DNA of 64,000 nt, taken from contig CBDBBW010000007.1 in the NCBI GenBank assembly GCA_965203225.1, forward strand, positions 7,122 to 71,121, in the 5' to 3' direction. Shown here in pieces: positions 22,342 to 40,255 of this stretch; within the stretch, counting starts at the first letter, position 1; each line of letters opens with the position of its first letter. Under the pieces are notes generated by a model, which did not search any database, was not told the DNA's origin, and was given only the letters and a program-made list of their open reading frames with translations. Position numbers and translations under genes: made by a program. This DNA comes from Bdellovibrionales bacterium. GTDB lineage: Bacteria; Bdellovibrionota; Bdellovibrionia; Bdellovibrionales; UBA1609.

Positions 22342-22510
22342 TCCTCATTAAACCTTTAGATTCATGGTGATTTAAGCTAAATATTAGAGTAGTTCACTTA
22401 TTGTAATTAATATGAAAAACAAGTGTTTTTGAAACCAAATTCAAAATTATTGAACCCATTTTTTTAAAACATAAATACTTTACCAAAACAAACAAACAGC
22501 CTATATTATA

Positions 22511-22925
22511 AAGAGGGGATTGCCGGGTGATCGCTGAACTTTTCCCTGTAAATACCGATCACGGTATAAGCGGGTGCCAAAGCCAATTTGTCAATCACGA
22601 ACTGGCTATAAAAATTCAGAGGAAAGTCCGGACTCCAATATGGCAGCGTAAAAGGTGAAAACCTTTCCACTCTGAAGACAGCTTTTGCCGTCTCCAAGGT
22701 GAGGACAAGTGGAACAGAAAGTATATCCGGATTTTTTTCATCAAGATGGAAAAAATTGCTGGAGTGAAATCAGCTAAACTCTGCGCGGAGCAAGGTCAAA
22801 TAGGAAAGCGTCTGAGTCAAGCCATGACAAGCTTTCGGGTTGACCGCAAAGATAAATGCTCACCTCCTCCCGCTTGAACCGGTTGAGCGGGAGCAGACAG
22901 AATCCGGCTTACAGCAATCCCCTTC
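22511..22925 (+). ncRNA. rnpB: RNase P RNA (bacterial type A)
   Basis: Conserved blocks GAGGAAAGTCCGGACTCC, AAACTCTGCGCGGAGCAAGGTCAAATAGG and ACAGAATCCGGCTTAC. P1 pairing: gaggggattgc (5') with gcaatcccctt (3'). Confidence 0.88.
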
Positions 22926-22947
22926 AACCGGTTTTATATTTAAAAAC

Positions 22948-23021
22948 TGATGGCGGTAGGATTCGAACCTACGACCTACAGCTTAGAAGGCTGTTGCTCT
23001 ATCCAGCTAAGCTACGCCACC
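22948..23021 (-). tRNA. tRNA-Arg (anticodon UCU)
   Basis: Hand-folded: acceptor GGTGGCG/CGCCATC, D-arm GCTT-AGCTGGATA-GAGC, anticodon stem ACAGC/GCTGT with loop CTTCTAA, T-arm GTAGG-TTCGAAT-CCTAC. CCA is not encoded. Confidence 0.9.
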
Positions 23022-23154
23022 ATCTTTAATTTATGTACAAAATCAAGATACATTCACTATTCCCGCTTTATCCCTCTCCCTCCAATTTTTAATAAAAAAA
23101 GTATAATTGCGTTCACCGTTTTTACAAGAGGATGTGTTTAATTGATTCATATCA

Positions 23155-24552
23155 TTAAGTTATTTTCTTTATAATATCACCACTTTTTACATTATTACCT
23201 TCTTCTGCGTTCGATTCCGCTCCCGACTCCACCTCTGATGCCCTTAACAACTTTTGCTCCTGTAAATAATTACCGGAAAACAAAAGACATACCAGACCTA
23301 TTAACATGGCCAATAAAGAGGCAATCAAAATACTCAATTTAGAGTACATAGCCAACTCCGGTTGAGTAAGAAAACCGAGGTGAGAAATAAACAAGGCCAT
23401 AGTAAACCCAATCCCAGCCAAAAAGCCGACGCCGGTTAATCTCCTCCAGTTAAACCCGGAAGGCCAAACAGCCAGATTCAAACGAACAGCTAAAAAGGAA
23501 AACAGCAAAATACCAATGGGTTTACCCAATAAAAGACCGAACAAAACACCCAGGAAGACAGGATGAGAACTAAATTCCGCAAAGGATAATCCAGTTTTAA
23601 ACTCCACGCCCGCATTACAAAACGCAAATACCGGCATAACAATCCAAGCGACATAAGGATGCAAAACTTCAATCAACCGATGAGCGGGGGTGTAAAGGGA
23701 CTGGACTGAATCCATCAGCTGTCTTGATTTTTTATAGTGAGGAACCGATACAGAAAGTTTTCTGACATTCTTCCATTTTTGCTCTCTATTATCTATTCTC
23801 CGGGCTGGACACATCAAGCCCAGAATCACTCCAGCCACTGTAGAATGCACTCCGCTGTTCAACATAAAAAACCAAAGACCAACTCCGCAAATAACATAAA
23901 AAGTGATACTTTTAATGGCTATTTTCTCAGCACAGACAATAACAAAAACAACCATGGTTCCCAAACCCAAAAACCGGCCGGCAATTTCCTGAGAATAAAA
24001 AACAGCTATGACCAGCACTGCACCCAAGTCATCTACAATAGCCAAACCCAAAAGAAACACCTTTAATGAAACCGGCACTCTTTTGGATATAAGGCTTAAA
24101 ACCCCCACCGCAAAAGCAATATCTGTCGCCATAGGGATAGCCCACCCGACCTGAGTAACACCCTGAGAATTAAAAAACAGATAAAATAACGCCGGCATGA
24201 TCATACCACCCAAAGCGGCAAAAAGCGGCAAGGCCGCTTTCTTAGGAGAGGCCAACTCACCCACAGTTAACTCTCTTTTTATCTCCAAACCCACAACAAA
24301 AAAGAAAATCACCATTAAAGCGTCATTCACCCAATGATGAAGAGACAAAGAAAGAGAATAGCCTCCAAAGTGAAAACCCAGGGGGTAGTGTAAAATTTTA
24401 TGGTATAAGCCAGACCAAGGGGAATTGGCCCACAACAAAGCCAACAAAGTGGAAATCAATAAAAAAATTCCCGTGCTGGCTTCCAGATTAAAAAATCTTC
24501 CAAAAGGAGTGACAAACCTTTTCACCATTTGTCTGGATTTAGTCTTCAACAT
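23155..24552 (-). CDS. nhaA: Na+/H+ antiporter NhaA with a ~45-aa C-terminal tail
   Basis: 12-TM profile, including the NhaA LAIVDDLGAV motif (conserved DD pair). Confidence 0.9.
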   Translation of the reverse strand: MLKTKSRQMVKRFVTPFGRFFNLEASTGIFLLISTLLALLWANSPWSGLYHKILHYPLGFHFGGYSLSLSLHHWVNDALMVIFFFVVGLEIKRELTVGELASPKKAALPLFAALGGMIMPALFYLFFNSQGVTQVGWAIPMATDIAFAVGVLSLISKRVPVSLKVFLLGLAIVDDLGAVLVIAVFYSQEIAGRFLGLGTMVVFVIVCAEKIAIKSITFYVICGVGLWFFMLNSGVHSTVAGVILGLMCPARRIDNREQKWKNVRKLSVSVPHYKKSRQLMDSVQSLYTPAHRLIEVLHPYVAWIVMPVFAFCNAGVEFKTGLSFAEFSSHPVFLGVLFGLLLGKPIGILLFSFLAVRLNLAVWPSGFNWRRLTGVGFLAGIGFTMALFISHLGFLTQPELAMYSKLSILIASLLAMLIGLVCLLFSGNYLQEQKLLRASEVESGAESNAEEGNNVKSGDIIKKIT

Positions 24553-24859
24553 ATCAGATTATCCTTTTTTGAATATTAAATTAAAAACTTATCTTCTACC
24601 CTTTTCAGTTCTTTTTATTTTGAGCACGGAGGAAGCAAAAATACGAATTTCATAAAATAAGCCCCTGCAGTCAAACAAAAATCCACTCCTTCATCCCCAG
24701 ATAATCACTAATAACCGCTAACCGGAGTATTTCATAAAAATCCTATAAATTTTCGGCAAAGAATGTCATTTTTTTTCAAGAATAAGGCCAAAAAACTTTA
24801 CTTCTATTAAAGCAACTAATAAAAAGTATATATCACTTTTATCTCAAATGGCAAGTTGA

Positions 24860-24969
24860 GGCTAACTTCGAGTGACCTTCTTTAGATTATTATGAGTTAA
24901 AGTAATCTACTTGTGTTTTTTTGCGACCGGGGGCTAACCTGCGAGTGGCCTTCTTTAGATTATTATGAG
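24860..24969. repeat. Direct duplication (37/38 bp, period 72 bp) of the leader and start codon of the NYN pseudogene
   Basis: ggctaac..gagtgRccttctttagattattatgag occurs at 24860-24896 and 24932-24969. Confidence 0.85.
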
Positions 24970-25502
24970 AGCAATCGCCTATATTGACAGTTTTAATCTT
25001 TTTTACGATACTTTAAAAAAGAGTCCTATAAATTAACTTGGAAGCTCTGATAAAAAATATCTCTTCTGACTATTATTTGTATTAAATACTTTTACAGCCC
25101 GCATATCTTCGTTATCACAAAACTAAAAAACTCCCATAAAAAATATCTCTTCTGACTATTATTTGTATTAAATACTTTTACAGCCCGCATATCTTCGTTA
25201 TCACAAAATTAGAAAGCTCCCATTCACCAAGCACTTTATCTTAGAGCTTTAAAAACTCTGAAAAATATTCAAACTTATGACGGTCATTTTTTAGCTCATA
25301 TAGTCTTATGCCTTTAATCACAAAAGACTATTCTATGTCCGTCGTTCAGGCCCGTCTCGAATATGCAGAACAGAAAACAACTCAAGTGTACGCACAGACT
25401 GTGGCTTTCTTGAGTTCAAAGACAGGAGAAAAAACAGCTTCTATTGTTTTCAAAGACAGTCGTCTTATAAATCGGTTTTTTTTAGTGTACAGGAGTTTTT
25501 AA
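24965..25502 (+). pseudogene. Degraded NYN-domain protein gene (extent approximate)
   Basis: MRAIAYIDSFNLFYDTLKKSP matches the MRxAxYIDGFNLYY start of NYN-domain proteins. Frame-shifted pieces IKYF(T)AR... and YLRALKTLKNIQTYDGHFLAH follow. Contains stops, frameshifts and an 86-bp internal duplication. Confidence 0.55.
25050..25208. repeat. Tandem duplication, 73-bp unit, period 86 bp, inside the NYN pseudogene
   Basis: ataaaaaatatctcttctgactattatttgtattaaatacttttacagcccgcatatcttcgttatcacaaaa occurs at 25050-25122 and 25136-25208. Confidence 0.9.
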
Positions 25503-25569
25503 TAAAACCCTTGTAAAAGTTGATTTTTTTTAAAAATAACTTTTGTGATTTTAGTAAATTACAAAACTA

Positions 25570-25586
25570 TTGGTGCCCGCGGAGGG
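25570..25586. repeat. Left copy of an exact 17-bp GC-rich direct repeat (att-like)
   Basis: ttggtgcccgcggaggg, identical to 36912-36928. The reverse complement CCCTC-CGCGGGC-A-CCA reads like a tRNA T-stem 3' half, acceptor 3' strand, discriminator and CCA. Confidence 0.7.
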
Positions 25587-25838
25587 CTAAAAGATAGAGA
25601 TATTAAAATGCTGAAAAAACTAACAAACTCCACTCCTTTTTTTTCTATCATAACAGCTAATAACATCTCCTAACTGGAAGATCACTTAAATTTCATGCAA
25701 AAATTTGTCAAAAAAAGTCTAAAACCTTCTCTTTTTCCTAAAATAAGCTTATAAAGAGCATGATCATGCTTATCTCAAATGACAAGTTTAGGCTACCTCA
25801 GATGTTCTTTTTTATAGGGTTTAGAAATATGTACAATA

Positions 25839-26039
25839 ATGATAGAAGAAGATGAATGGGATACTGTATCTGAAAGTGATACGGTTGTAGAATGTAGGAA
25901 ACCTTTTGATGATACATCAACTTATTTTGTTGAATGGGATAAAAATACACTACTAAAAAATATGTTTTCAGAAGATTATTTAATAGTAGAAAATTATTCA
26001 TTCCTATTAAGTGTTAATGGTCTATTACTTGATCTTTAA
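25839..26039 (+). CDS. Small acidic hypothetical protein (66 aa) upstream of mod
   Basis: ORF only, with no clear RBS. About 15 D/E versus 4 K/R residues. May be non-coding. Confidence 0.3.
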   Translation: MIEEDEWDTVSESDTVVECRKPFDDTSTYFVEWDKNTLLKNMFSEDYLIVENYSFLLSVNGLLLDL

Positions 26040-26162
26040 GAGGTGAGAAAATAGAATAATATAGTTCAAGGAAACATGATTTGATATTTATGTTACTACA
26101 CTTGAGAAGAAAATATAAATATCATTTTTTTATAATTTAGATACATAAAGTTAGGATTAAGA

Positions 26163-27791
26163 ATGCCAATTTTAGATTTTAAAGGAAAGTCTGTTATCTA
26201 TTCGCATCATTTGAGAGTTCCTTTTCGTTCTTTAAATATAGATAAAAAAAGGTCTTTTTCAAGTCCAAAAAGCAATGGAAAAAAGTCAGAGCCTTCTTTA
26301 GATAATAACCTGATTATTCATGGGGATAATCTTCATGCCTTAAAAGCTTTAATTCCAAAATACCATGGAAGAATAAAATGTATCTATATTGATCCACCCT
26401 ATAACACAGGAAACGAGGGTTGGATATATAACGACAAAGTCAATAATCCTATCATAAAAGAGTGGCTGAAACAAAATGGCATTGGAAAAGATGATTTGGA
26501 AAGACATGATAAATGGCTTTGTATGATGTGGCCTCGTCTTCAATTATTAAAAGAACTATTATCTGAAGATGGAGTCATTTTTGTCAGTATTGATGATAAC
26601 GAGCAATTTAGACTTATGGCTATCATGGAAGAAATTTTTGGTGAAGAGAATTTTATTGGAGGATTTGTATGGAGAAAAAAAGCAGGGGCAGGAGCAGACA
26701 GCAAATTATTTTTTAGACAACATGAACATATATTATTTTATGGTAAGAATGTTAAAAACTTAACAAATTTATTTCAACCTTTAACAGAAAAACAAAAAAA
26801 GGAATATAAAAATCCTGATAATGATCCTCGTGGCTTATGGGCAAGCACTGATCTGACACGAACAGATGACAATGATCCAAAGAGAACTTATGAAGTAATA
26901 TCACCCTGTGGAAAAAAATATAAAAATTGTTGGACTTACACGGAAGAAAAATTCTATAAACTAATAGATGAAAATTTAATATGGTGGGGTAAAAATGAAG
27001 ATCAGAAACCAAAAAGAAAAAGATTTTTTAATAATAAAAAAGGATTGATACCTCGTTCTTGGATAGATTCGTTTCTTACTTCAGATGGAAAAAAAGATCT
27101 GGAATCCATTAATTTCAACTGCTTTCAATATCCTAAACCAAAAAAATTAATTAAATTATTGTTGCAAATAGCGAGTGATAAAAATTCAATTATATTAGAT
27201 TCCTTTGCAGGTTCAGGAACAACAGCTCACGCTGTTCTGGATTTGAATAAAGAAGACGGAGGCAATCGTAAGTTTATCCTTGTAGAGTGTGAAGATTATG
27301 CTGATACAATCACAGCTGAGCGTGTCCGGCGGGTCATAAAGGGAGTTCCTAAAGCCAAAGAAGGGAGATTAAAAAAAGGCTTAGGGGGTTCTTTCACTTA
27401 CTGCACTCTTGGAAAAGAAATCAATACAGAAAATCTTTTGAAAGGAAAAGATCTTCCTGATTACAAACAACTTGCAGAATATGTTTTTTATACAGCAACA
27501 GGAGAGAGTTTAAGCAAAGTTTATAAGGCTAATTCCGCTTGGTTTATTGGTGAAAGCTCAGCTTATAGACTGCATCTTGTTTATAAACCGGATTTAGATT
27601 TTCTAAGGAGCAAAGATAGTGCTTTGCATGAAGGCTTAGCAGAAACAATTAAGAATTTTAATGAACAATCAAAAAAAATAAGCCTTGTTTTTGCTCCAGC
27701 AAAATATATCACACAAAAAGAGCTTTTGAAGGACTATGGCATTCAGTTTTGCCAGCTTCCTTATGACATTCATAAAATTATGGGGGCTTAA
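26163..27791 (+). CDS. mod: Type III restriction-modification DNA methyltransferase (Mod, beta-class N6A/N4C)
   Basis: Motif IV DPPYNTG lies N-terminal to motif I FAGSGTTAHAV, with a variable region between them. Followed immediately by res. Confidence 0.9.
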   Translation: MPILDFKGKSVIYSHHLRVPFRSLNIDKKRSFSSPKSNGKKSEPSLDNNLIIHGDNLHALKALIPKYHGRIKCIYIDPPYNTGNEGWIYNDKVNNPIIKEWLKQNGIGKDDLERHDKWLCMMWPRLQLLKELLSEDGVIFVSIDDNEQFRLMAIMEEIFGEENFIGGFVWRKKAGAGADSKLFFRQHEHILFYGKNVKNLTNLFQPLTEKQKKEYKNPDNDPRGLWASTDLTRTDDNDPKRTYEVISPCGKKYKNCWTYTEEKFYKLIDENLIWWGKNEDQKPKRKRFFNNKKGLIPRSWIDSFLTSDGKKDLESINFNCFQYPKPKKLIKLLLQIASDKNSIILDSFAGSGTTAHAVLDLNKEDGGNRKFILVECEDYADTITAERVRRVIKGVPKAKEGRLKKGLGGSFTYCTLGKEINTENLLKGKDLPDYKQLAEYVFYTATGESLSKVYKANSAWFIGESSAYRLHLVYKPDLDFLRSKDSALHEGLAETIKNFNEQSKKISLVFAPAKYITQKELLKDYGIQFCQLPYDIHKIMGA

Positions 27792-30428
27792 TTGGAATTA
27801 AAAAATTATCAAGAAGGCGTGCTTGAAAGACTGTCTCTTTATCTTAAAACTTTAAAAGAAAAAAAACAAGACAGTCTAGCATTAGCAAAGTTCCAAAAAG
27901 AAAACAAAAAACCTGTTAATTGGACCTCAGGAGACTTTAACTTTTGCCAAAGAGCGTGGGAGGAAATGAATGAAAAAAGACTGCTCCCTCTTATTTCAAG
28001 AAAAATTATTGATAAAAATGATGCTCTATTTATACCTAAAAACCAAGAACAAACTATAGCTTCTTATAAAAATCGTTTTAGCGGAATGGATCAACCGGTT
28101 CCCAATATATGTCTTAAAGTTCCAACAGGAGGAGGGAAAACTCTATTAGGGGCGGGAGCTATAGAGCAAATTAACATTGATTTTTTTGAACAAAATAGAG
28201 GTTTTGTTTTATGGGTTGTCCCCAGTGATTCTATCTATAAGCAAACACTAAAAGCCCTATCTGATCGAGAAAGCCTTTATAGACAGATTTTAGATCGAGC
28301 TTCTCTAGGTAAAGTTAAAATTTTACAAAAAACAGATCGCTTCCATCCCCAAGACATAAAAGATTATTTGTGTGTCATGCTTTTAATGCTTCAATCTGCC
28401 GGCAGACAAACAAAAGAGACCTTAAGAATGTTCAAAGATTCTGGAAAGTTTCCCTATTTTTTTCCTGAAATAGATGATTACCCTGCGAATAAAAGACTGC
28501 TTAATCTATGTTCCAATTTAGACCATTATAATCTAGCTCTTCAAGATAATACTTCTATAAAACACAGTTTAGGAAATGTTTTAAAGCTTATACAGCCTTT
28601 AATTGTTATTGATGAAGGACATAGAGCTTATACAGAAAAGGCAAAAAATACTTTGCTGGATTTTAATCCAAGGTTTATTTTAGAGCTTTCAGCTACTCCT
28701 AATAAGAAAAAACATCATAGCAATATCCTGGTTTCAGTTTCAGGCAGTGAACTTAAAAAAGAAGAAATGATAAAGCTCCCTATAAACATTTTTAACTTAG
28801 AAAGCAGGGACTGGAAAAAGGCTTTGGCAAAAGGCTTTGAAATACAAAAAAATCTTTCAAAAGATACAAAGAAACTTCAAACAAAAGAAAACCGCTACAT
28901 TCGTCCTATTATGCTGGTTAGAGTAGAGCGGACAGGAACCGATCAAAGAGAAAAAAAATTCATTCATTCCGAAGATGTAAAAGAGTATCTAATAAAAAAT
29001 TTTAATGCAGACACAGATGAAGTGAGAATTAAATCTTCTGCAAAAGATGAATTAGGAAATGAAGATTTGCTTTCTGAATATTCTCGTGTGAAATACATTA
29101 TTACCAAAGAAGCTTTAAAAGAGGGTTGGGACTGCTCTTTTGCCTATATCTTGGTCATCTTGTCTAAAACAAAAGCTCCTATTGCGATTGAACAAATGAT
29201 AGGGCGGGTTTTAAGACAACCTCAAACTAGAAAGACAGGTTTTACATCTTTAAATGAATGTTATGTTGTCTGTATGGATCAAGATGTGGCTGGAGCTGTG
29301 GAAGGTGTCAAAAAAGGACTCCAAAATGAAGGAATGGATGGACTGGCGGGAGATATAAAACTTTTAGAAGACAATAACCAGAGATTTAAAAGAGAAGTTA
29401 AAATAAAAAGAAGATCAGCTTTTAGAGGTTTAAAAATTTTCTTGCCAAGAGTGCTGTATCGATCAGGAAAGCAATTAAGATCCCTTAGTTATGAAAGAGA
29501 TTTACTTTATAATATTGATTGGTCAAAATTAAGATTTAATAAAGATATAGGTTTAAATGATAGAATCCCTGATATGACTCATACACAGATAGATATAAAA
29601 GAACAAATGGAGTTGATTTCTTCTTATCAAGGAAGTAATGAAGAACGTTCTAAAGATTTAGATATGGATTTTGGGTTTATGTGCCAAAGGCTTTCCGACA
29701 TTATACCTAATCCTTGGAATGCCAGTCTCACAGTAGGGAAGGCTTTATCTATTTTAAAGCAGAAAAACGAAACAAAAAATATATGGGCAAATAGATTTTC
29801 CATTTTGGATTCTCTAAGAAATAATTTACAAGATCAGATAAGTCAGAAGACAGAGCAAATTTTTAGAGAGAAGCTCAAGAACAATAAGATTTTATTCAAA
29901 TTAGTAAGTGCCGGTGATCCTAAACTGAACTGGGAAATGGCTGAAACTTTAAACCTTTCTATATCAGAAGAAAGTGATCTTTTAAGACAGAGAAACAGCA
30001 GAGATTTACAGCTTTCACTTTTTGAAGATATTTATAAAGAGGAATTTAAGTTTAATGACTTAGAAAAGAAGGTGGCCTGGTATTTAGATGAAGATTCAGC
30101 TATAAAATGGTGGCATAGAATTATAGAAAAGCAAGATTGGCATTTACAAGGCTGGCAAAAAAATAAAATCTATCCTGATTTTTTAGTTTGCTTAAAATCT
30201 TCTAAAAACGGCACAGCTCATTTTTCCATTCTTGAGACAAAAGGAGAGCATCTTATAGGAAATCCTGATACAGAATACAAGAAAAAACTTTTTGATCTAT
30301 TTACAAAATATTCTAAAAAATCTACACCGGCGGGAGATATTGAAATACAAGATCAAAAAATGACTTTTGATCTTGTTGTGCAAAGTGAATGGCGAGAAGC
30401 GTTAAATAAACTTTTTAAAATCGGATAA
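27792..30428 (+). CDS. res: Type III restriction enzyme Res subunit (SF2 helicase plus C-terminal PD-(D/E)xK nuclease)
   Basis: Motif I VPTGGGKTLLG, motif II VIDEGHRAY, motif VI QMIGRVLRQP. C-terminal YPDF...ILETKGEHL nuclease signature. TTG start abuts the mod stop. Confidence 0.9.
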   Translation: MELKNYQEGVLERLSLYLKTLKEKKQDSLALAKFQKENKKPVNWTSGDFNFCQRAWEEMNEKRLLPLISRKIIDKNDALFIPKNQEQTIASYKNRFSGMDQPVPNICLKVPTGGGKTLLGAGAIEQINIDFFEQNRGFVLWVVPSDSIYKQTLKALSDRESLYRQILDRASLGKVKILQKTDRFHPQDIKDYLCVMLLMLQSAGRQTKETLRMFKDSGKFPYFFPEIDDYPANKRLLNLCSNLDHYNLALQDNTSIKHSLGNVLKLIQPLIVIDEGHRAYTEKAKNTLLDFNPRFILELSATPNKKKHHSNILVSVSGSELKKEEMIKLPINIFNLESRDWKKALAKGFEIQKNLSKDTKKLQTKENRYIRPIMLVRVERTGTDQREKKFIHSEDVKEYLIKNFNADTDEVRIKSSAKDELGNEDLLSEYSRVKYIITKEALKEGWDCSFAYILVILSKTKAPIAIEQMIGRVLRQPQTRKTGFTSLNECYVVCMDQDVAGAVEGVKKGLQNEGMDGLAGDIKLLEDNNQRFKREVKIKRRSAFRGLKIFLPRVLYRSGKQLRSLSYERDLLYNIDWSKLRFNKDIGLNDRIPDMTHTQIDIKEQMELISSYQGSNEERSKDLDMDFGFMCQRLSDIIPNPWNASLTVGKALSILKQKNETKNIWANRFSILDSLRNNLQDQISQKTEQIFREKLKNNKILFKLVSAGDPKLNWEMAETLNLSISEESDLLRQRNSRDLQLSLFEDIYKEEFKFNDLEKKVAWYLDEDSAIKWWHRIIEKQDWHLQGWQKNKIYPDFLVCLKSSKNGTAHFSILETKGEHLIGNPDTEYKKKLFDLFTKYSKKSTPAGDIEIQDQKMTFDLVVQSEWREALNKLFKIG

Positions 30429-31232
30429 TTGGATTTTACAATGAGTACTAAAATATTCTCAATAGCCCGATTAACAATAGGTGATGAAAATTTTACTTTA
30501 CAGGATTTTTCATCTATTAAAGAGTTGTATAATAATGAGCAGGGAGAACAAAATAGGATTATCCAAAAAAAACTCTTTGATAATAATAGATTTATTTCTC
30601 TATATTTTGAAGAAGGAAATGTTTTTCCCAGACCTGACACTGTTTATAATAAGAAAATTCATACTGAAGAAGAAAACCCAAGGACTACTGATCAAATAGA
30701 GAGAGATTCACAAAAATTTTTCCTAATTGATATAAAAGAACAAAAAATATTCATTTCTGATTTTAGAAAAAAAAAGATGCTAGAGGAGTGGCTGACTGAA
30801 AAGATAAAAAAACAAGTGTTAATTAGGAATATAATAGATAGAGAATATTTTTTTAATGAACTTCAGAGCATCAATACAATATATTTATCCGCTGTTCCTA
30901 ATTTATTAACACAAGAAGGAATACTTAGTAAAGAACTAACTTCTGATCACCATAATTATGGACAGAGTATAAAACATATAGGTGTTAAAATTACTTTTGA
31001 AGAAACAAAATTATTGTCAAAAAAAATTAAAGATAAAGTTACAAATTTATGGAATCAGAAAGCTAATTATGAAATTGATAAATTAGAAGTTTCTGGTCGT
31101 TATGATAATAAATTCGAGAGGGTATTTAATGCAGAAGGAATCATTGATAAGATTGAAATAAAAATAGATCCTAAAAAAAATGGTTTGTTTGATCAAGAGA
31201 GTGTTTTTAACAAATTGATTAAAAATATGTAA
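30429..31232 (+). CDS. Hypothetical soluble protein (267 aa; 263 aa from ATG 30441), family not recognised
   Basis: Long ORF abutting the res stop in very AT-rich DNA, with no hydrophobic segments. The only motif is a weak RPD-x30-FFLIDIKEQK pattern (possible PD-(D/E)xK). Confidence 0.7.
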   Translation: MDFTMSTKIFSIARLTIGDENFTLQDFSSIKELYNNEQGEQNRIIQKKLFDNNRFISLYFEEGNVFPRPDTVYNKKIHTEEENPRTTDQIERDSQKFFLIDIKEQKIFISDFRKKKMLEEWLTEKIKKQVLIRNIIDREYFFNELQSINTIYLSAVPNLLTQEGILSKELTSDHHNYGQSIKHIGVKITFEETKLLSKKIKDKVTNLWNQKANYEIDKLEVSGRYDNKFERVFNAEGIIDKIEIKIDPKKNGLFDQESVFNKLIKNM

Positions 31233-31666
31233 TGAAAAAAATTGTTATACTTTTATCTTTTTTAGTTTCCATTTTGTTACAATGGTACTTTGAACTTGCT
31301 ATTAACAAGGATTTTATATCCTCTTTACTAATAGTTTTTTCTATGTTTTTTGGATTTTATATTACCAGTCTTGCTGTTTTTTCAACTTCAAAATATCTAC
31401 ACAAATTATACAAAATAGAAGATCAAAAAGATAATCGAAAAACTCTATTGGATAATCTTATAGAAGAATTCAAATGGCCGGCATACTTTCTTTTATTTTC
31501 TATAGTATATCTGATTGCTGTATATATTATCATAGAAAACAAGTTTCCTAAATTTATATACTATTGCTTTTACATTTTATGGGGGATTATCGTATTAAAT
31601 ATTTTTTATATTTTTAGAACAATAGATATTTTTATAAAAATCACTCGTCAGTCTGTAAAAGAGTAG
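31232..31666 (+). CDS. Hypothetical small integral membrane protein (144 aa, four predicted TM helices)
   Basis: TAATG stop/start overlap with the upstream ORF. Hydrophobic stretches at aa 4-20, 29-50, 83-101 and 107-127, with a charged loop between TM2 and TM3. Confidence 0.7.
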   Translation: MKKIVILLSFLVSILLQWYFELAINKDFISSLLIVFSMFFGFYITSLAVFSTSKYLHKLYKIEDQKDNRKTLLDNLIEEFKWPAYFLLFSIVYLIAVYIIIENKFPKFIYYCFYILWGIIVLNIFYIFRTIDIFIKITRQSVKE

Positions 31667-31742
31667 CAGATACATAAGTATATTTTTTTAAAAAACTATA
31701 AATACTTCTTTTTATTCGACTTGAAGCAAAACTTGATCAGAA

Positions 31743-33308
31743 TCATATGGTTTTTAAGAAAGCCTGAGCCTGAGCATCACCTTGTTTAGCCGCTTTTTCA
31801 AACAACTCTATTCCTCGCTGTATATCTTGCTCCACTCCTTCTCCCTTACAATACATCGCAGCTAAGAAAGTCTGAGCTGGAGCAAAACCTTTTTCAGCCG
31901 CTTTTTCAAACAACTCTCTTGCTCGATGTCTATCCTGCTCCACTCCTTTTCCATCAAAATACATCACAGCTAAGGCATGCTGAGCTGGAGCAAAACCTTG
32001 TTTAGCTGCTTTTTCATACCACTCTCTTGCTCGATTTATATCTTGCTCCACTCCCTCTCCCTTATAATACATCACAGCTAAGTTACTCTGAGCTGGAGCA
32101 TCACCTTGTTTAGCTGCTTTTTCAAACAACTCTATTCCTCGATTTATATCTTGCTCCACTCCTTCTCCCTCATAATACATCACAGCTAAGGCATGCTGAG
32201 CTGGAGCATCACCTTGTTTAGCCGCTTTTTCATACCACTCTATTCCTCGATTTATATCTTGCTCCACTCCTTCTCCCTCATAATACATCACAGCTAAGGC
32301 ATGCTGAGCCAGAGCAAAACCTTGTTTAGCCGCTTTTTCAAACAACTCTATTCCTCGCTGTATATCTTGCTCCACTCCTTCTCCCTTACAATACATCACA
32401 GCTAAGGCATGCTGAGCCAGAGCAAAACCTTTTTCAGCCGCTTTTTCAAACAACTCTATTCCTCGCTGTATATCTTGCTTCACTCCTTCTCCCTTACAAT
32501 ACATCACAGCTAAGGCATGCTGAGCTGGAGCAACATCTTGTTTAGCCGCTTTTTCATACCACTCTCTTGCTCGATGTATATCTTGCTCCACTCCTTCTCC
32601 ATTAGAATATATATCAGCTAAGTTATACTGAGCTGGAGCAAAACCTCGTTTAGCCGCTTTTTCATACCACTTTATTCCTCGATGTCTATCTTGCTCCACT
32701 CCTTTTCCATCAAAATATATCACAGCTAAGGCATGCTGAGCTGGAGCAACACCTTGTTTAGCCGCTTTTTCAAACAACTCTATTCCTCGATGTATATCTT
32801 GCTCCACTCCTTCTCCCTTAGAATACATCTGAGCTAAGTTATACTGAGCTGGAGCAAAACCTCGTTTAGCCGCTTTTTCATACCACTCTCTTGCTCGATG
32901 TATATCTTGCTCCACTCCTTCTCCATTAGAATATATATCAGCTAAGTTAAACTGAGCTGGAGCAAAACCTTGTTTAGCCGCTTTTTCCAACCACTCTATT
33001 CCTCGATGTCTATCTTGCTCCCCTCCTTCTCCCAGATAATACATCGCAGCTAAGGCATGCTGAGCTGGAGCAACACCTTTTTCAGCCGCTTTTTCAAACA
33101 ACTTTCTTTTTCTTGCTCTACGATGTCTATCTTGCTCCCCTCCTTTACTGTGGATTAAGTTACAGAGACTCACTCCATTATAATGTATCAAAGCAGTGTT
33201 ATACTGATACTGAGCATAACGTTGTTTAGCCAATCTTTTAGAGTTGCACAGAAAAAGCTTAACAGCTCTTAACAAGGATTTTAATGCGCTTGGTTTTTTT
33301 ATCATCAT
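31743..33308 (-). CDS. Sel1-like repeat (SLR) protein, 12 full 36-aa repeats plus degenerate flanking repeats
   Basis: Repeating APAQxxLAxMYxxGEGVEQDxxRxxEWYEKAAKQG consensus. DNA repeats of 108 bp are near-identical. Confidence 0.9.
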   Translation of the reverse strand: MMIKKPSALKSLLRAVKLFLCNSKRLAKQRYAQYQYNTALIHYNGVSLCNLIHSKGGEQDRHRRARKRKLFEKAAEKGVAPAQHALAAMYYLGEGGEQDRHRGIEWLEKAAKQGFAPAQFNLADIYSNGEGVEQDIHRAREWYEKAAKRGFAPAQYNLAQMYSKGEGVEQDIHRGIELFEKAAKQGVAPAQHALAVIYFDGKGVEQDRHRGIKWYEKAAKRGFAPAQYNLADIYSNGEGVEQDIHRAREWYEKAAKQDVAPAQHALAVMYCKGEGVKQDIQRGIELFEKAAEKGFALAQHALAVMYCKGEGVEQDIQRGIELFEKAAKQGFALAQHALAVMYYEGEGVEQDINRGIEWYEKAAKQGDAPAQHALAVMYYEGEGVEQDINRGIELFEKAAKQGDAPAQSNLAVMYYKGEGVEQDINRAREWYEKAAKQGFAPAQHALAVMYFDGKGVEQDRHRARELFEKAAEKGFAPAQTFLAAMYCKGEGVEQDIQRGIELFEKAAKQGDAQAQAFLKTI

Positions 33309-33416
33309 TACCTCCGATTCTTATTCAAACTATGATTTGTTTTTACCATAATTTGCTAATTCATTCCAGCTATTTATAAAATTATGAAAAAATTATACAC
33401 CACTGTTTAAACTTTA

Positions 33417-33552
33417 TGGGAATCCGTTTTTTATCTTTGTTCAACTCCGGCTTTAAATGAATAGTTCCTGTTAAACGAGGCAGAGCAGGTCCATAAACAT
33501 CTCCGTCCAGCAGACCGATTTTTAAACCCAGATTGGATAAAGCGGATGACAT
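33417..33552 (-). pseudogene. Fragment of an Mrp/ApbC-type Fe-S cluster carrier ATPase gene
   Basis: Translates to MSSALSNLGLKIGLLDGDVYGPALPRLTG..., matching the xNLAxALAxxGxKVGLLDADIYGPS region. The P-loop and C-terminal parts are absent. Confidence 0.5.
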
Positions 33553-33636
33553 GTTTAAAAGAATAAAAGAGGTATATTATGTCTTATTTAAAAAAAATCT
33601 TGTTTTTTGGGAGCAAATTTAATCTCGGTTTCTGCA

Positions 33637-34307
33637 TTAGCTGTTCCCTTCTTGAAAGCAGAAAGAGATGGAAAGCATCTCTAAAGGTTTTTTCAATGAT
33701 TTATATTTTTCGGTAATCTTATACTTAACGGTTTTACGAGCACCTTCAAAATAAATAAGATTATTGTCTTTTAAAAACCTTATATAATTTTCTATTGTTC
33801 TTAATGTAATACCTTCTTTTTTTGAAAAAGAAACAGAAGAAAACTCCTCTTGTTTATCTATTACATTTAATAATTTTAATAAATTGTCTCTTTTTTTCCT
33901 TTTACTCCGAAATTTATACCGAAATTTTTATCTTCTGAAATAAACTGTTCAGTAAGTAAAAGCTTGCGAAAAAATGTCACAGTTGTAAAGCCATCAAATT
34001 CAAACTTTATCGGACGCAATCCTTCTGCTTTAACTAAATCTCTCATCTTTTTAATCCCTATTCCCATTCTTTCAATGTATCCAGAGCCGTCCATCAAATC
34101 TGCTAAAAGCAGGTTGGGGCGAACACTTTTTTTTCCAAATTTTTCTTTAGACAGTCCTGCGGGTAATCCGCCAAAATTAGAAATTTCTACTCTATCGTCA
34201 TAAATCTCAACAGTCACAGATGTTCCGTCCTCCAAATAATTTGTATGAATGACAGCATGGAAACGAAAAACCTCTCTGCAGTTCACAGGCCAGCCTTGGA
34301 CATACAC
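33637..34307 (-). pseudogene. 5'-truncated, frameshifted gene for an AlbA_2/HATPase_c_4-type putative regulator ('RecG-like C-terminal' family)
   Basis: AVIHTNYLEDGTSVTVEIYDDRVEISNFGGLP...YIERMGIGIKKM matches the HATPase_c_4 core. A wHTH-like tail (ITLRTIENYIRFLKDNNLIYFEG) continues in another frame after the T7/A7 run at 33891-33897. The N-terminal domain is missing. Confidence 0.6.
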
Positions 34308-34485
34308 ACAAACCCACAGTGACTCAAAGGTATGCTAAGACTATCGCTATCTTATTTGTTCTGTTGCAGGCGGAGATGAGTTTTTAGTTTTTTTGAGTTC
34401 AGTCATTTTATATTTTGAGATGGAAAAGAATTTTTTAGATTGTGTTTGCATGAGAAAAACGGATATGATAACTTCTAAAAAAGAA

Positions 34486-35082
34486 ATGAAATATTTTATA
34501 TTTATTTTATTTTTCTCTTTTGCGGCACTTATAGCATCTTCAGCCTTCTCAAAGCCTTATTTGTATCCCGGCTATCTTAATGATGGGGTTTCACCGTCCT
34601 GGGGGATCACCGCTTATAAGTGGTCTGTTTCTATTGACAAAAAAAAATCAAATGTGTTTTTTGAGCCATTCTTATATATAACCTGTCATCCGGCGCAAAC
34701 ACCACAAGAAAATTCAAAAATAGAGATAAGCCTCTCCTTTAAAGCGCATCCTAGAGATCCTAAGCCCTCTTATGCCTATGGACCAATAGGGTGGTTGAAA
34801 CTGTGGGGAATTCTTGAATCAAAATTTATAGACAGGCCTGTCAAGGCAATTTCAAACAATGTGTCTATCGGCAGTAATTTGGTAAGATTGGCTTTGTCAG
34901 TATTAGTAAACGAAAGTTATCGGATGATTTTGGATCGATCTCCTGATACTAGAAAATGGCTTAGCGGCTTTTTGCAGTCAAAACAATTAAAAGTTCAAGG
35001 GGAAGGAATAGATATTACAGTCTTATTTTACCACCAAGACCTTGATAAATGGCTCAAAGATACTCTAAACAGATGTCCTTAA
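34486..35082 (+). CDS. Hypothetical secreted protein
   Basis: Signal peptide MKYFIFILFFSFAALIASSAFS. No recognisable domain. The tracked ORF begins upstream at 34393. Confidence 0.55.
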   Translation: MKYFIFILFFSFAALIASSAFSKPYLYPGYLNDGVSPSWGITAYKWSVSIDKKKSNVFFEPFLYITCHPAQTPQENSKIEISLSFKAHPRDPKPSYAYGPIGWLKLWGILESKFIDRPVKAISNNVSIGSNLVRLALSVLVNESYRMILDRSPDTRKWLSGFLQSKQLKVQGEGIDITVLFYHQDLDKWLKDTLNRCP

Positions 35083-35182
35083 CACAAATATATCCAGCAA
35101 TTCGCTTAAGAAAGAAGTTAAACAAAACTTCATTGCTGGTGAACTGTCTATAAAAAAATAGCTCTCAAAGCTGACTCCTTGC

Positions 35183-35341
35183 TTATCTAAGTCTCAACCA
35201 AAAGATTGGAAAAGCTTTTAAATGAGAAAGTTTGTTTGAAACAGAAGGGGTAAAAGGATATTTATGACTGGATAAAAAAAAGCCAGCTGAAACAGCCGGT
35301 GTTGCATAAAAAACCAAAATTAGTTTTAATATAAAAATCAT
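35183..35341 (-). pseudogene. Truncated paralog (first ~35 codons conserved) of the secreted protein gene at 35804-36508
   Basis: Same GGGAGGAG RBS and MIFILKLILVFYATPAVSA signal peptide as the full copy. Diverges and stops after 52 codons. Confidence 0.5.
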
Positions 35342-35514
35342 AATAACTCCTCCCAGATTGTTTAGGGCTTTATAATACACAATAATAAGTTTAGTATAGA
35401 TAATTTGTCTGAGTCGGAAAATTTTACCAATTTTTCACATAGCGGCTTATTTAATGAACCTTTTTAGTTTTCTTCCAAAGATTTTTTTTTGGCAGGCAAA
35501 AGCCTTACAATTGA
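35239..35514. repeat. Copy 1 of a ~276-bp direct repeat
   Basis: Near-identical to 36406-36682. Covers the promoter/RBS and 5' coding region of the secreted-protein gene family. Confidence 0.9.
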
Positions 35515-35803
35515 AAAAATACAAAAATAAAAAAGGCATTATTTCTGTTAAAAGTAAAGTGGGTTTTAGAGGGCTTCTTCTTAAAAAGAAATTTTTGCCA
35601 AAAATTCAATTGGATATAACAGCTAGTGAAATCTTGGTTTTAAAACCTGTGAAACGGAGAGTGCATCACCCTTACTCAGATGATTTTAAACAGTGGACAC
35701 TAGGCAGAAATGGGATTGTAATATATTTTACTTTCTTTTTATTAGCTTTCTTTCTAAATTATCTAAACAGTCAGTACAGTCTAAATGCAAGCTTCCATTT
35801 ACA

Positions 35804-36508
35804 CTAATGCCTTTTTCTCATTCTATTTCTCTGATATTTTTCATCATAGAGGACACCACTACTCAGAGATAGGATTTTAGTATATTTTACTTTCTTTTTA
35901 GGTAGCTTTCTGCTTACTAAAGCATCTAAACAATCATCACAGCCTAAGTGCAATTTTCCATTTACACCAATGCCTTTTTCACATTCTCCGGTTTGGATTG
36001 TCTCTGATATTTTCTCGCTCATATATTCATCTCTTTCACCATCATCAATACTACCAGGTTTATCAACCGCAAAAATAGACCACTTGTTTTTTATAGCTGT
36101 ATTGATTAAAAAATAATGAGAGCGACCTTCATGGAAGCCGTTGAGCCATTTATTAAGTTTAGTAGAATTATCTGTGTATTCCAAATAGAGGCATTTTTTA
36201 TGATTCGGATATATTTCTGAAAACTTCTTTATTAAATTAAAATAAATATTTTCTTGATCGTAAGAATTTTGTCTTCCTACTTCGTTTCCGCCTCTTTCCC
36301 CTCTTCTTGTTTCAAGCAGATAAGCAGAGACAATATGAGTTTCCCCTACAAATAGAATATCCACTCTTTTAATTAGGGTATTTTGACGATATTCTAAGAT
36401 GGGCAAAACAGAAGGGGTAAAAGGATATTTATGACTGGATAAAAAAAAGTCAGCTGAAACAGCCGGTGTTGCATAAAAAACCAAAATTAGTTTTAATATA
36501 AAAATCAT
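35804..36508 (-). CDS. Hypothetical secreted protein (possible ChaN/Tiki-like fold, very tentative)
   Basis: Strong RBS GGGAGGAG 5 nt before ATG 36508, plus a signal peptide. The ILFVGETH motif is reminiscent of GExH in ChaN-like proteins. The 3' end is tandemly duplicated (35722-35850 vs 35882-36015), so the stop position is uncertain. Confidence 0.6.
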   Translation of the reverse strand: MIFILKLILVFYATPAVSADFFLSSHKYPFTPSVLPILEYRQNTLIKRVDILFVGETHIVSAYLLETRRGERGGNEVGRQNSYDQENIYFNLIKKFSEIYPNHKKCLYLEYTDNSTKLNKWLNGFHEGRSHYFLINTAIKNKWSIFAVDKPGSIDDGERDEYMSEKISETIQTGECEKGIGVNGKLHLGCDDCLDALVSRKLPKKKVKYTKILSLSSGVLYDEKYQRNRMRKRH

Positions 36509-36682
36509 AATAACTCCTCCCAGATTGTTTAGGGCTTTATAATACACAATAATAAGTTTTAGTATAGATAATTTGTCTGAGTCGGAAAATTTTACCAATT
36601 TTTCACATAGCGGCTTATTTAATGAACCTTTTTAGTTTTCTCCCATAAGATTTTTTTTGGCCGGCAAAAGCCTTACAATTGA
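36406..36682. repeat. Copy 2 of the ~276-bp direct repeat
   Basis: See 35239-35514. Confidence 0.9.
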
Positions 36683-36962
36683 CTGGATGAAAACAAAGCC
36701 AACAACTCAATTCCAAAAGAAAAAAAGTTTTATTCAGGAGTTAAAAATTTTAAAAACAGTTTTAAACTGGTATAAAAATTTTCTGAATGAAGACTTTAAT
36801 GTGCCTATAAAAGAAAAGCATAAACAGCTTTTCATTCTTAGACTTAAAACCCTTAGGGGGCCGGATTATTTTATTCAGCCTGAAGATGTTAAAAAAATGG
36901 GTGGAAAAGATTTGGTGCCCGCGGAGGGAGTCTGTTTGAAAAACAAAAAAAATTTTAAATAA
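36657..36962 (+). pseudogene. Possible N-terminal remnant of a tyrosine recombinase/integrase (weak call)
   Basis: 101-aa ORF abutting the right att-like repeat. ELKILKTVLNWYKNFLNEDFNVPI ... RGPDYFIQPEDVKKM loosely resembles an integrase SAM-like N-domain and linker. There is no catalytic domain. Confidence 0.3.
36912..36928. repeat. Right copy of the exact 17-bp direct repeat (att-like)
   Basis: ttggtgcccgcggaggg, identical to 25570-25586. Confidence 0.7.
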
Positions 36963-36967
36963 CTTCC

Positions 36968-37711
36968 TCATCTTCCCTGTGATTTTTGTCTTCGTTTTAA
37001 GCGATCAAACTTTTTTTCCACTTTCTCTGTCCATTTTTTATAATTATTGAAAATAGTATCCGTATCCCCCGGCTCCTGGACAGGCCCTATATGGAGATAC
37101 ATTTTCCCCGGCAGAGGAAACTTTTTTCCCTTTGGCCATAACCGCCTGGTTTTTCTCAAATAAAGAAATAAAACCGGTGTATTGGTTTTGGTGGAAAAAA
37201 GACCTACTCCGTTTTTAAAGCGTCTGAGAGAACCGTCCGTCGATCGGGTTCCTTCGGGAAACATAACTATCCATATTCTCTTCAAATCAGTTAATAAATT
37301 AATGCACTTTTTAACTGAATCGGTTTTTTTAGCTGACCGATCAAGAGGAATAGCCCCTAAAAAATATTTGGAAAAAAAACGCAAAAACCGGGTATTGAAC
37401 CAATAATCCCTGGCGGCCAGGATATAAAGATCCATCCAGTGAGAAAAAGGAATGGAAGTCAAAATAGCCGGGCCGTCCAAATGACTGGCATGATTGGATA
37501 TAATAATCAGCTTGGGATACTTTTTATAAAAGCCTTTGAACTTGCCCTTGACCTTCAGTCGTATGTAAAACTTAAAAACCAGCCGCAAAAAAAAGGCCCA
37601 TAAACCTCTAGTAAATAAATGACCTGATATTTTTTCATAATCAAACATATCCCAAATATTAGGCTCATCCAACAGGTCCTGTTCCATTTTATCGTCTTTT
37701 ACTTCCGGCAT
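36968..37711 (-). CDS. plsC: 1-acyl-sn-glycerol-3-phosphate acyltransferase family protein
   Basis: Acyltransferase motifs NHASHLDG (HX4D) and FPEGTRS. Confidence 0.85.
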   Translation of the reverse strand: MPEVKDDKMEQDLLDEPNIWDMFDYEKISGHLFTRGLWAFFLRLVFKFYIRLKVKGKFKGFYKKYPKLIIISNHASHLDGPAILTSIPFSHWMDLYILAARDYWFNTRFLRFFSKYFLGAIPLDRSAKKTDSVKKCINLLTDLKRIWIVMFPEGTRSTDGSLRRFKNGVGLFSTKTNTPVLFLYLRKTRRLWPKGKKFPLPGKMYLHIGPVQEPGDTDTIFNNYKKWTEKVEKKFDRLKRRQKSQGR

Positions 37712-37825
37712 ATTTTTCTCTTTGGTTTTTTTCCTTATATATCATATCTATGTAATTCACTCAAAATACACAACCACTAAAAGTTTATCTTGAGCTTGAA
37801 TCCATTTAGTTTTAAAAGAACCTAT

Positions 37826-39046
37826 ATGAAATGTTTATTATTGGAAGGCATTCATACTACGGCCGGAGAGAAGTTAAACACTCAAGGGCTACAGGTGGAA
37901 TTGGCCAAGTCCGATCTCAGCGGGGAAGAGCTTTTAAAAAAAAGCTGTACTGCTTTGGGTGTCCGCTCCCGCACCTTCATCACAAAGGAGACCCTAAAAG
38001 CCCTTTGCCCCTCTCTCAGGGTGATTGGAGCTTTTTGCATCGGTACGGATCAAATTGATTTGAAGACAGCCAGTCAAATGGGAGTGCCGGTTTTTAACGC
38101 CCCTTATGGAAATACAAGAAGCGTCGCGGAGTTGGTGATTTCACATATCATTGCCCTTTCCCGTCAAAGCTACAGCTTTAATCAGATAATGCACCAGGGA
38201 ATATGGAATAAAACCGCTAAAGGAAGCCGGGAAGTCAGGGGAAAAACACTGGGTATTGTGGGATACGGGCATATAGGCACACAAGTCAGCATACTGGCGG
38301 AATCCATAGGAATGAAAGTTCTTTATTTTGATATTATTGAAACCCTGCCCATAGGAAACGCCCAACCGGTAAAAAACCTCAAGGAGCTAATGAGCCTTTC
38401 TGACTTTGTGACATTACATATCCCCAAAACCACCGCGACAACAAACATGATACAGAAAAAACAGCTAAAATGGATGAAAAAAGGCTCTTTCCTCATTAAT
38501 ACCAGCCGTGGCACGGTGGTCAGCTTGGAGGATCTGAAGAATGCACTTTTGGAAAACGAATTGGCTGGCGCCGCACTGGATGTGTTCGCAGAAGAACCGC
38601 AAAAAAAACAAAGCATTTTTACCTGCCCCCTACAAGGGATGAAACAGGTGATCCTCACTCCCCATGTGGCCGGCAGTACGGAGGAAGCACAGGAAAATAT
38701 CGCCCGACAGGTCAGCTCCTCTATCACAAAATATCTTTTTCACGGAATATCCGAGGGCGCAGTCAACTTTCCTGTGCTAAATCCCCCCCCTTTGAGTTCT
38801 ATGAGCAAATGCCAAAGGTTAGTGAATATACATAAAAATATTCCCGGGGTGTTAGGGAATATCAATGGTTTGGTATCCCGGCTGAAAATCAATATTCAAA
38901 GCCAGTATCTGGCAACCAAAGAGAATATAGGCTATTTAATTATGGATATGGAACATAAAAACACAAACCAGCTTTTTAAGGCCATTGACTCGTTGGATAC
39001 TTCCATTCGCACTTATACTCTGCCGGCTGAAGGCAAATCCATATAA
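37826..39046 (+). CDS. serA: D-3-phosphoglycerate dehydrogenase with C-terminal ACT domain
   Basis: NAD-binding GIVGYGHIGTQV, catalytic-region TPHVAGST, ~80-aa C-terminal regulatory domain. ATG 37826 is preferred over the upstream TTG. Confidence 0.9.
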   Translation: MKCLLLEGIHTTAGEKLNTQGLQVELAKSDLSGEELLKKSCTALGVRSRTFITKETLKALCPSLRVIGAFCIGTDQIDLKTASQMGVPVFNAPYGNTRSVAELVISHIIALSRQSYSFNQIMHQGIWNKTAKGSREVRGKTLGIVGYGHIGTQVSILAESIGMKVLYFDIIETLPIGNAQPVKNLKELMSLSDFVTLHIPKTTATTNMIQKKQLKWMKKGSFLINTSRGTVVSLEDLKNALLENELAGAALDVFAEEPQKKQSIFTCPLQGMKQVILTPHVAGSTEEAQENIARQVSSSITKYLFHGISEGAVNFPVLNPPPLSSMSKCQRLVNIHKNIPGVLGNINGLVSRLKINIQSQYLATKENIGYLIMDMEHKNTNQLFKAIDSLDTSIRTYTLPAEGKSI

Positions 39047-39132
39047 CCGGGCCAAAATAAAAAACCTCTCACCGGCTGAAGGCAACATCAAATCCATATA
39101 ACCGGGCCAAAATAAAAAACCTCTTGCCGGCT
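39022..39132. repeat. Tandem duplication (49/54-bp units) of the serA 3' end, filling the serA/recombinase convergent spacer
   Basis: ccggctgaaggcaa(catca)atccatataaccgggccaaaataaaaaacctct x2, plus a third partial start (tgccggct). Confidence 0.9.
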
Positions 39133-40200: not shown

Positions 40201-40255
40201 TGCGCTGTCTCATAATGAGACGCATCATATTTAACCACGGAAGGAGAAAAGGGAA

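Follow-up and report, generated by a model that had tools for sequence, protein, structure and literature searches.

P4-like and ICEclc-like elements integrate into the 3′ ends of tRNA genes through a tyrosine integrase. Sublocation classes of such tRNA-gene integration were reportedly distinguished by Williams in 2002. Phage lambda uses secondary (pseudo-attB) sites when its primary site is unavailable. In Bordetella petrii, the islands GI1–GI3 at tRNA-Gly accreted in tandem, with tRNA-derived repeats being re-used as targets (PMC2717098). Here we describe a stretch of 64,000 nt (the window) from contig CBDBBW010000007.1 of a Bdellovibrionales bacterium (GCA_965203225.1), in which a low-GC island lies in the spacer between plsC and nhaA. 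We propose, with a probability of roughly 80%, that positions 24617–36932 are a decayed tandem array of islands that target tRNA-Leu(UAG). The array would consist of an older element, E1 (24617–25569), and an 11.3-kb island, E2 (25587–36911), which carries a Type III restriction-modification (R-M) system.

The locus shares with other tyrosine-integrase islands at tRNA 3′ ends its tRNA-end repeats, integrase-derived sequence at the tRNA-proximal attachment (att) site, a deviant GC content, defence cargo and absence from relatives. It differs from them in that no tRNA gene lies at the site, only integrase fragments remain and the plsC-nhaA spacer is the target. As in B. petrii, related elements stand head to tail with tRNA-derived repeats between them, which are re-used as the next target and are in some cases imperfect; the B. 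petrii islands, however, are large active integrative and conjugative elements with circular forms, while those described here are small, decayed and without conjugation genes (PMC2717098). The island is of a classical, already known type, and its non-tRNA location is the only mildly unusual feature.

The insertion and its 17-bp repeat

The empty site was sought in relatives by comparing NhaA-based loci L001, L002 and L020, whose NhaA proteins are 70–73% identical to that of the window. All three have the order serA, plsC, nhaA and then tRNA-Arg(tct). The plsC and nhaA genes overlap in L001 and are separated by 52 bp in L002 and by 73 bp in L020, and no tRNA lies between them in any of the three. 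Both sides of the window gap were collinear with the relatives in tblastx, synteny with L002 being kept on both sides, and no match to window positions 24560–37010 was found in these plsC-nhaA relatives. Because the relatives have plsC and nhaA adjacent, without matching DNA, the 12.4 kb that separate the start of nhaA (24552) from the stop of plsC (36968) are read from this comparison as an insertion. An empty site, which the earlier note had suggested looking for, is thereby available. The GC content is 0.327 in 24617–36932, against 0.418 in the left flank and 0.404 in the right flank, in agreement with the AT-richness that had been noticed for the enclosed DNA. The inserted DNA starts and ends at att-type cores, and it is therefore attributed to site-specific recombination rather than to illegitimate insertion.

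The 17-mer TTGGTGCCCGCGGAGGG occurs exactly twice on the plus strand of the window, at 25570–25586 (copy 1) and 36912–36928 (copy 2), as first reported in the earlier note; both are annotated as att cores on the minus strand. No further match with up to two mismatches was found on either strand, and 100 dinucleotide shuffles gave 0 matches. From base composition, the chance of a second exact copy of a 17-mer with 13 G/C is ∼4e-7 in 64 kb. ARAGORN found only two tRNAs in the window, tRNA-Pro (2999–3075) and tRNA-Arg(tct) (22947–23022). Rfam at E≤10 over 22500–40500 returned tRNA-Arg and RNase P RNA only, so that neither program predicts a tRNA beside either copy, again as the earlier note had it. 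The tRNA-Arg(tct) gene was ruled out as the source of the repeat, its 3′ end being mismatched.

Copy 2 is followed by AGTC, and the resulting 21 nt (36912–36932, minus strand) match the 3′ part of the tRNA-Leu(tag) gene of relatives at 21 of 21 positions. This is the right end of the insertion, from which 36 nt lead to the plsC stop codon. An intact or reconstituted tRNA gene is missing from the island end, where the 21-nt stub stands alone. The core covers the T-stem 3′ half, the acceptor 3′ strand (the complement of GCCCGCG), the discriminator A and CCA plus one base. This layout had been read correctly from the letters alone, and it corresponds to the tRNA-Leu(tag) genes of two relatives, L016 and L019, in which a tRNA with this 3′ end was found. 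The tRNA-Phe-like identity that had been proposed has to be replaced: by sequence identity, the 17-mer is the 3′ end of tRNA-Leu(UAG), with acceptor GCCCGCG. Most probably it is the att core used by a family of tyrosine-integrase islands that normally integrate at that 3′ end.

A scan of viral sequences with the 16-mer gave 12 matches, of which four are tRNA 3′ ends: phage tRNA-Leu(tag) in L007 and L011, and genes called Arg(tcg) by ARAGORN in L004 and L014. The other eight lie in GC-rich coding DNA with no predicted tRNA and look like chance matches. Degenerate core matches were not counted as evidence alone, since they are common; on the plus strand of the window there are 77 sites matching the 17-mer at 10 of 17 positions and 13 sites matching at 11 of 17.

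The tRNA-Leu gene of relatives and the proposed tandem elements

A close homologue of the window integrase fragment, P0046 (81% identical), is placed on L016 (ENA ERZ25070884 contig_19), which belongs to a related member of the Oligoflexia/Bdellovibrionales and is the best-preserved relative found. L016 holds the identical 17-mer twice, at 2542–2558 and 11255–11271, 8.7 kb apart. The second copy is the 3′ end of an intact tRNA-Leu(tag) gene (11256–11341, minus strand), of which it comprises 16 nt together with 1 flanking nt. This tRNA gene lies 115 bp downstream of an integrase gene of complete length, interrupted once and preceded by an HTH_17 excisionase-like gene. Past the tRNA follow gcvH and then gcvT. 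The L016 element resembles the window insertion in its core, its integrase DNA (86%), its P and P′ arms and its defence-type cargo, and also in its tandem layout, where the distal core is preceded by a remnant of an integrase C-terminus. It differs in that its proximal core lies in an intact tRNA-Leu(tag) by gcvH, and that it carries NYN, GmrSD and PLD-type nucleases where the window has Type III R-M. A second copy of the P′ arm, at L016 3925–4011, starts exactly at the core boundary, with unrelated sequence and no 17-mer before it. It is near-identical to L016 2559–2658 and 85% identical to window 25614–25678, and points to a further rearrangement, or to secondary recombination, at the edge of the core.

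L019, a 1.89-Mb contig, has the order gcvT-gcvH-tRNA-Leu(tag) with the same 3′ end (16/16). At L019 11936–21071, a sequence resembling a P arm, TAATGCCTTGTAATTACT, comes after the tRNA-Leu(tag), and then an rve transposase, a TIR-nSTAND NTPase, an MmeI-type R-M gene and an IS1595 transposase. No integrase or second 17-mer was found within 9 kb of this tRNA. The region resembles a further decayed island of defence genes at this att site. Because of the nucleases of L016 and the TIR-nSTAND and MmeI-type genes of L019, the tRNA-Leu(UAG) att site is regarded as a hotspot of defence genes in the clade. The GcvT proteins of the L016/L019 group and the NhaA relatives of the window have source names in Oligoflexia or Bdellovibrionales. 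Two contigs with P0172 (L017 and L018) stop short of gcvH and the tRNA.

The sequences flanking both copies of the 17-mer, described in the earlier note as unrelated, each have a homologue among the att arms of this element family in L016. Around copy 1, window 25363–25678 is collinear with L016 2337–2658 at 76% identity in blastn, comprising the integrase 3′ end, the 17-mer and a P′ arm of ∼90 bp with the motif CCACTCC. The order of integrase 3′ end, ∼110 bp, core and P′ arm is that of an attP, and is what is expected between tandem elements; L016 has the same order at its distal core. Two places thus carry the marks of a tandem array, namely an attP-like internal junction (25281–25680, collinear with L016 2300–2658) and an additional att-type site beyond the two 17-mers (24617–24900).

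The remnant to the left of copy 1, E1, is ∼1 kb long. Its outermost part is a degenerate att core, ATTTTGAGCACGGAGGA (24617–24633, minus strand), 64 nt upstream of the nhaA ATG, which forms the left end of the insertion. It matches the 17-mer at 10 of 17 positions, with 6 of 7 in the right 7 nt. It aligns in register with the 17-mer and directly before a P′-arm homologue, and it is this position alone that makes the match count. The P′ (left) arm homologue of E1 (24634–24900, plus strand) shares 63% identity with the arm on the right of copy 1 and 60% with its L016 counterpart, and CCACTCC is conserved in it with the same spacing; repeat D16 (24832–24867 and 25763–25798, 83% identical) was also detected. 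A decayed, frameshifted C-terminal fragment of a tyrosine integrase follows at 25281–25460 (plus strand), corresponding to residues ∼321–383 of ∼390. It was found by tblastn with the full-length homologue P0013 (E 4.5e-7), and window 25336–25459 is 79.8% identical in nucleotides to the 3′ end of the L016 integrase. Its translation ends ...VVQARLEYAEQKTTQVYAQTVAFLSSKTGEKTASIVFKDS, compared with ...VQASLGHSEQKTTQVYAKTVALLSSETGEKTSSLIFKDS in L016. The P (right) arm of E1 (25461–25569, plus strand), from the integrase stop to the att core, is a spacer of ∼110 bp, against 115 bp in the L016 layout. Tandem duplications were observed within E1 at 25035–25206 (86 nt, two units, 93%) and at 24866–24969 (73-nt spacing, two units, 94%). 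From these parts, E1 is very probably an element remnant made up of degenerate core, P′ arm, tandem-repeat debris, integrase C-terminus and P arm. The 17-mers had been thought to bracket the island; they do bound E2, while the whole insertion also includes E1 to the left (24617–25569).

E2 begins with copy 1, which is an exact att core in an attP-like layout at the E1/E2 junction. The adjoining P′ (left) arm (25587–25680, plus strand) is 67–76% identical to L016 2559–2658 and 85% identical to L016 3948–4011. At the other end, a fragment of the E2 integrase lies at 36669–36905 (plus strand), within an open reading frame (ORF) at 36657–36962. The ORF has 45 phmmer homologues, with E-values down to 6.8e-22, and its residues 8–80 align to residues ∼113–190 of proteins of 375–410 amino acids that carry PF00589 (Phage_integrase). 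The earlier note was right to see an integrase here, but the fragment is an internal core-binding domain (residues ∼113–190 of ∼390), not the N-terminus. Window 36678–36905 is 85.7% identical in nucleotides to the L016 integrase (L016 10352–10576). Searches of Pfam, PHROGs and NCBIfam with the integrase fragments gave no match, even at E≤10; the fragments were recognised by exhaustive phmmer only.

tblastn with full-length integrases gave three fragments in all, each on the plus strand. The third is a possible C-terminal fragment (residues ∼333–366, 34245–34377, plus strand), with weak matches at 34262–34354 (E 0.002–0.01) from seven homologues at the same residues. A core-like site follows at 34361–34377, whose 11 of 17 matching positions are weakly unusual, and no P′ arm was found after it. 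E2 may thus itself be composite.

The first ∼112 codons of the E2 integrase are replaced by the right copy of a 280-bp direct repeat (35239–35514 and 36406–36682, 95–99% identical; repeats D3, D4, D9 and D11), and the integrase homology starts at 36669–36678. The two copies delimit a rearranged zone (35239–36682) and flank a 264-amino-acid gene (35804–36598, minus strand) with no family match. Near this gene, partial duplications were observed between 35698–35824 and 35857–35987 (84–86%). The zone at 35183–36682 looks like a tandem paralogue duplication followed by partial deletion, and the ORF at 35454–35807 (plus strand) is probably spurious. Beyond residue ∼190, the E2 integrase, including its catalytic domain, is missing through a ∼660-bp deletion that ends ∼0–20 nt from the core. 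The junction at 36895–36911 aligns with the integrase as well as with the P arm, and the deletion possibly occurred across a short microhomology. As judged from these sequences, all integrase copies in the insertion are dead; their family assignment is secure, because the homologues carry PF00589. No intact integrase of the island family was found in the 64-kb window, in which the sole complete tyrosine recombinase (39133–40200) is XerC/XerD-like and syntenic in L002.

The following order of events is proposed. E1 would have integrated first, in the plsC-nhaA spacer. Its right junction, consisting of P arm, perfect core and AGTC, would then have been the landing site for E2, which was perhaps already composite on arrival. 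Recombination of the E2 attP with the E1 right junction would have produced the two exact 17-mers at 25570 and 36912. Later deletions and duplications would have stripped away nearly all of E1 and, from the E2 integrase, its first ∼112 codons and its catalytic domain. The end state would be a fixed, non-autonomous fossil that still delivers the Type III R-M system, the Sel1-repeat protein and a few unassigned genes. The sequences themselves show that the 17-mer is the tRNA-Leu end, that integrase fragments and homologous arms are present, that the R-M genes are intact and that the DNA is inserted relative to three relatives, while the order of events and the use of a secondary site are reconstructed. 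The claim that the repeat arose when an integrase inserted the island stands, given the tRNA and integrase of L016, the matching tRNA 3′ end of L019, the integrase fragment of the window and the three empty relatives.

Several observations weigh against the tandem-array reading. Intact integrase, excisionase and tRNA are all absent from the window, and the mechanism is rebuilt from fossils and from L016 as the single well-preserved relative. Metagenome assembly is the source of L016, L019 and the NhaA relatives, which stand at ∼70% protein identity or at unknown distance and are not conspecific. Taken as sequence matches alone, neither of the degenerate cores (24617 and 34361) is significant.

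The missing tRNA gene and other readings

The first integration is slightly better explained by a secondary site than by a real tRNA gene. The secondary site can be reconstructed as ...GACTCCCTCCG|TGCTCAAAA..., or ...caaacaGACTCCCTCCG|TGCTCAAAAtaaaaag... in tRNA sense, and it shares 11 contiguous bases, CGGAGGGAGTC, with the real attB. The empty spacer would then have read ...GACTCCCTCCGTGCTCAAAA... / ...CAAACAGACTCCCTCCGTGCTCAAAATAAAAAG.... The gcvH-linked tRNA-Leu(tag) is kept in two relatives and the plsC-nhaA spacer is tRNA-free in three, both of which favour this reading. The left outer core also favours it, with 6 of 7 matches on the P′ (element) side and 4 of 10 on the chromosomal side; this pattern has P ∼0.006–0.04 if the core decayed no more than the neighbouring integrase fragment (80% to L016). 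As in lambda secondary-site integration, one junction has a perfect core, the other is a hybrid matching the element side, and the reconstructed target has 11 contiguous attB bases; unlike in lambda, the site is here reconstructed from sequence, and a truncated real tRNA is a possible source of the stub.

Three points count against a secondary site. An exact 11-mer CGGAGGGAGTC is expected only ∼0.18 times per 1.27-Mb genome. Truncation of a real tRNA gene would leave exactly the AGTC that follows copy 2. If the E1 arms are ∼37% divergent by ancestry, a core matching at 10 of 17 positions is unremarkable (P ∼0.45). The empty sites from relatives at ∼70% identity show no look-alike sequence, while the hybrid pattern of the outer left core is present. 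In the metagenome scan, no match was found to the right junction or empty site TTCAAACAGACTCCCTCCG.

The strongest competing explanation is that the true attB was a genuine tRNA-Leu(UAG) gene, formerly located between plsC and nhaA, that the 5′ 65 nt of this gene were later deleted, leaving the 21-nt stub, and that the left core decayed. We consider this unlikely, yet it accounts directly for the 21/21 match of copy 2 plus AGTC, which cannot come from attP, where CTAA or TTTA follows the core. The rarity of a look-alike 11-mer and a degenerate left core that fits ∼37% divergence speak for it too. Against it, plsC and nhaA are neighbours with no tRNA between them in three relatives, and in two tRNA-Leu(tag) stands by gcvH. 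Codon use is also relevant. The core genes of the window use CTA 9 times and CTG 45 times in 1830 codons, and a functional tRNA should therefore exist elsewhere in the genome; a lost tRNA at this site therefore needs a second copy of tRNA-Leu(UAG), in a contig of only 1.27 Mb. In addition, an 86-nt tRNA ending at 36912 overlaps the last ∼10 plsC codons, so that an extra deletion in the spacer is also needed, and the end of the 5′ deletion would have to sit only 4 nt from the core. The earlier note left open whether the target tRNA had been deleted or lies elsewhere. It lies elsewhere in relatives, by gcvH; deletion at the site is the less favoured choice, and the tRNA was probably never at the plsC-nhaA locus. 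On the secondary-site reading, a fuller scenario can be put forward, nearly as likely as not: the 11-bp look-alike CGGAGGGAGTC in a spacer of a small genome that never had a tRNA was used, this created a perfect core, the R-M island was recruited to it, and the cores are perhaps still substrates in trans.

In connection with the source genome, the window ORF P0001 was recorded on a contig of 1,265,094 bp, which is small for Bdellovibrionota relatives. No GcvT from the contig of the window was present among the 120 listed homologues of L016 GcvT, and the glycine-cleavage genes may be absent from the source genome.

It is rather improbable that E2 is still mobile as a non-autonomous element, with an intact member of its integrase family, encoded at another place in the genome, acting in trans and keeping the 17-mers perfect. 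Both 17-mers are indeed perfect next to degraded integrase sequence, and the arms beside both cores are still recognisable. A recent integration, however, explains two perfect cores equally well. Most of the right-end P arm was lost with the ∼660-bp deletion, the window holds no intact integrase of the family, the recombinase at 39133–40200 being XerC/XerD-like, and no attP-type junction of core and P′ arm was matched in the viral and metagenome collections scanned.

Integration of SSV type, in which attP lies inside the integrase ORF and integration splits the gene, was suggested by the ORF at 36657–36962, which reads in frame through copy 2, the integrase fragment ending 6–15 bp before it. 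There is very little to recommend this reading. In L016, the integrase gene of this family stops 115 bp short of the core; copy 1 is immediately followed by a stop codon, with no integrase homology after it. The integrase C-terminal fragment lies upstream of copy 1 and not downstream, and to the left of copy 2, ∼20 nt still align with the P arm. The L016 layout and the lack of integrase homology past copy 1 rule it out.

A chance or dispersed repeat of the REP type, unrelated to integration, would fit the lack of a tRNA at either copy in the window but is scarcely credible given the expectation of ∼4e-7, the empty shuffles and the restriction to two copies even with 2 mismatches, and it is ruled out by L016, since every copy in L016 and L019 is a tRNA-Leu end or stands beside an integrase arm.

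Cargo, neighbouring genes and significance

E2 carries a full-length Type III methyltransferase gene, mod (26163–27791, plus strand; Pfam N6_N4_Mtase 2.3e-38; PADLOC MTase_III 1.7e-150), of which protein residues 1–537 align with positions 1–540 of the 542-position PADLOC profile. The full-length Type III restriction enzyme gene, res (27792–30428, plus strand; Pfam ResIII 5.5e-16; PADLOC REase_III 6.3e-257), is adjacent, with residues 1–869 aligned to positions 1–876 of the 883-position profile. By its genes, this is an intact Type III R-M system. Two ORFs of 267 and 144 amino acids (30429–31666, plus strand) abut res and gave no match in Pfam, PHROGs, PADLOC or NCBIfam. They follow res with no gap and overlap each other by 1 base, and the 144-amino-acid protein is multi-pass membrane-like. 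The two ORFs could form a module accessory to the R-M system.

A Sel1-repeat protein with 12 repeats is encoded at 31743–33308 (minus strand; Pfam Sel1 1e-147), where repeat family D1 has a DNA period of 108 nt. Its gene (31647–33242, minus strand) consists of ∼12 near-identical 108-nt units, 80–91% identical, with a GC content of 0.42 as compared with 0.30 in the rest of the island. Proteins with eukaryote-like repeats are a common trait of sponge symbionts. The sample label of L018, with the prefix ROBB21, is taken by us to denote a sponge metagenome. A truncated gene fragment with an HATPase_c_4 domain only (33876–34307, minus strand; Pfam 6.9e-18) and two more genes without assigned function complete the cargo of E2.

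Outside the insertion, the window encodes a bacterial class A RNase P RNA, rnpB (22515–22926, plus strand; 152.9 bits), which adjoins tRNA-Arg(tct) (22947–23022, minus strand). The order nhaA, tRNA-Arg, rnpB is also kept in L001 and L002. In L020, a cas1 gene (12417–13305) lies ∼5 kb beyond nhaA, where the window has different genes. The closest NhaA relative of the window, P0048, is 97% identical.

On the reading proposed, the 12-kb low-GC segment was horizontally acquired, so that the R-M system, the Sel1-repeat protein and the unassigned ORFs should not be taken for core functions of this uncultured lineage. If a secondary site was indeed used, the locus would be a natural example of a new integration hotspot born away from any tRNA gene. 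The integrase family, its att core and its conserved arms are now defined, and may serve, as in L016 and L019, to delineate defence islands in metagenome-assembled genomes of relatives.

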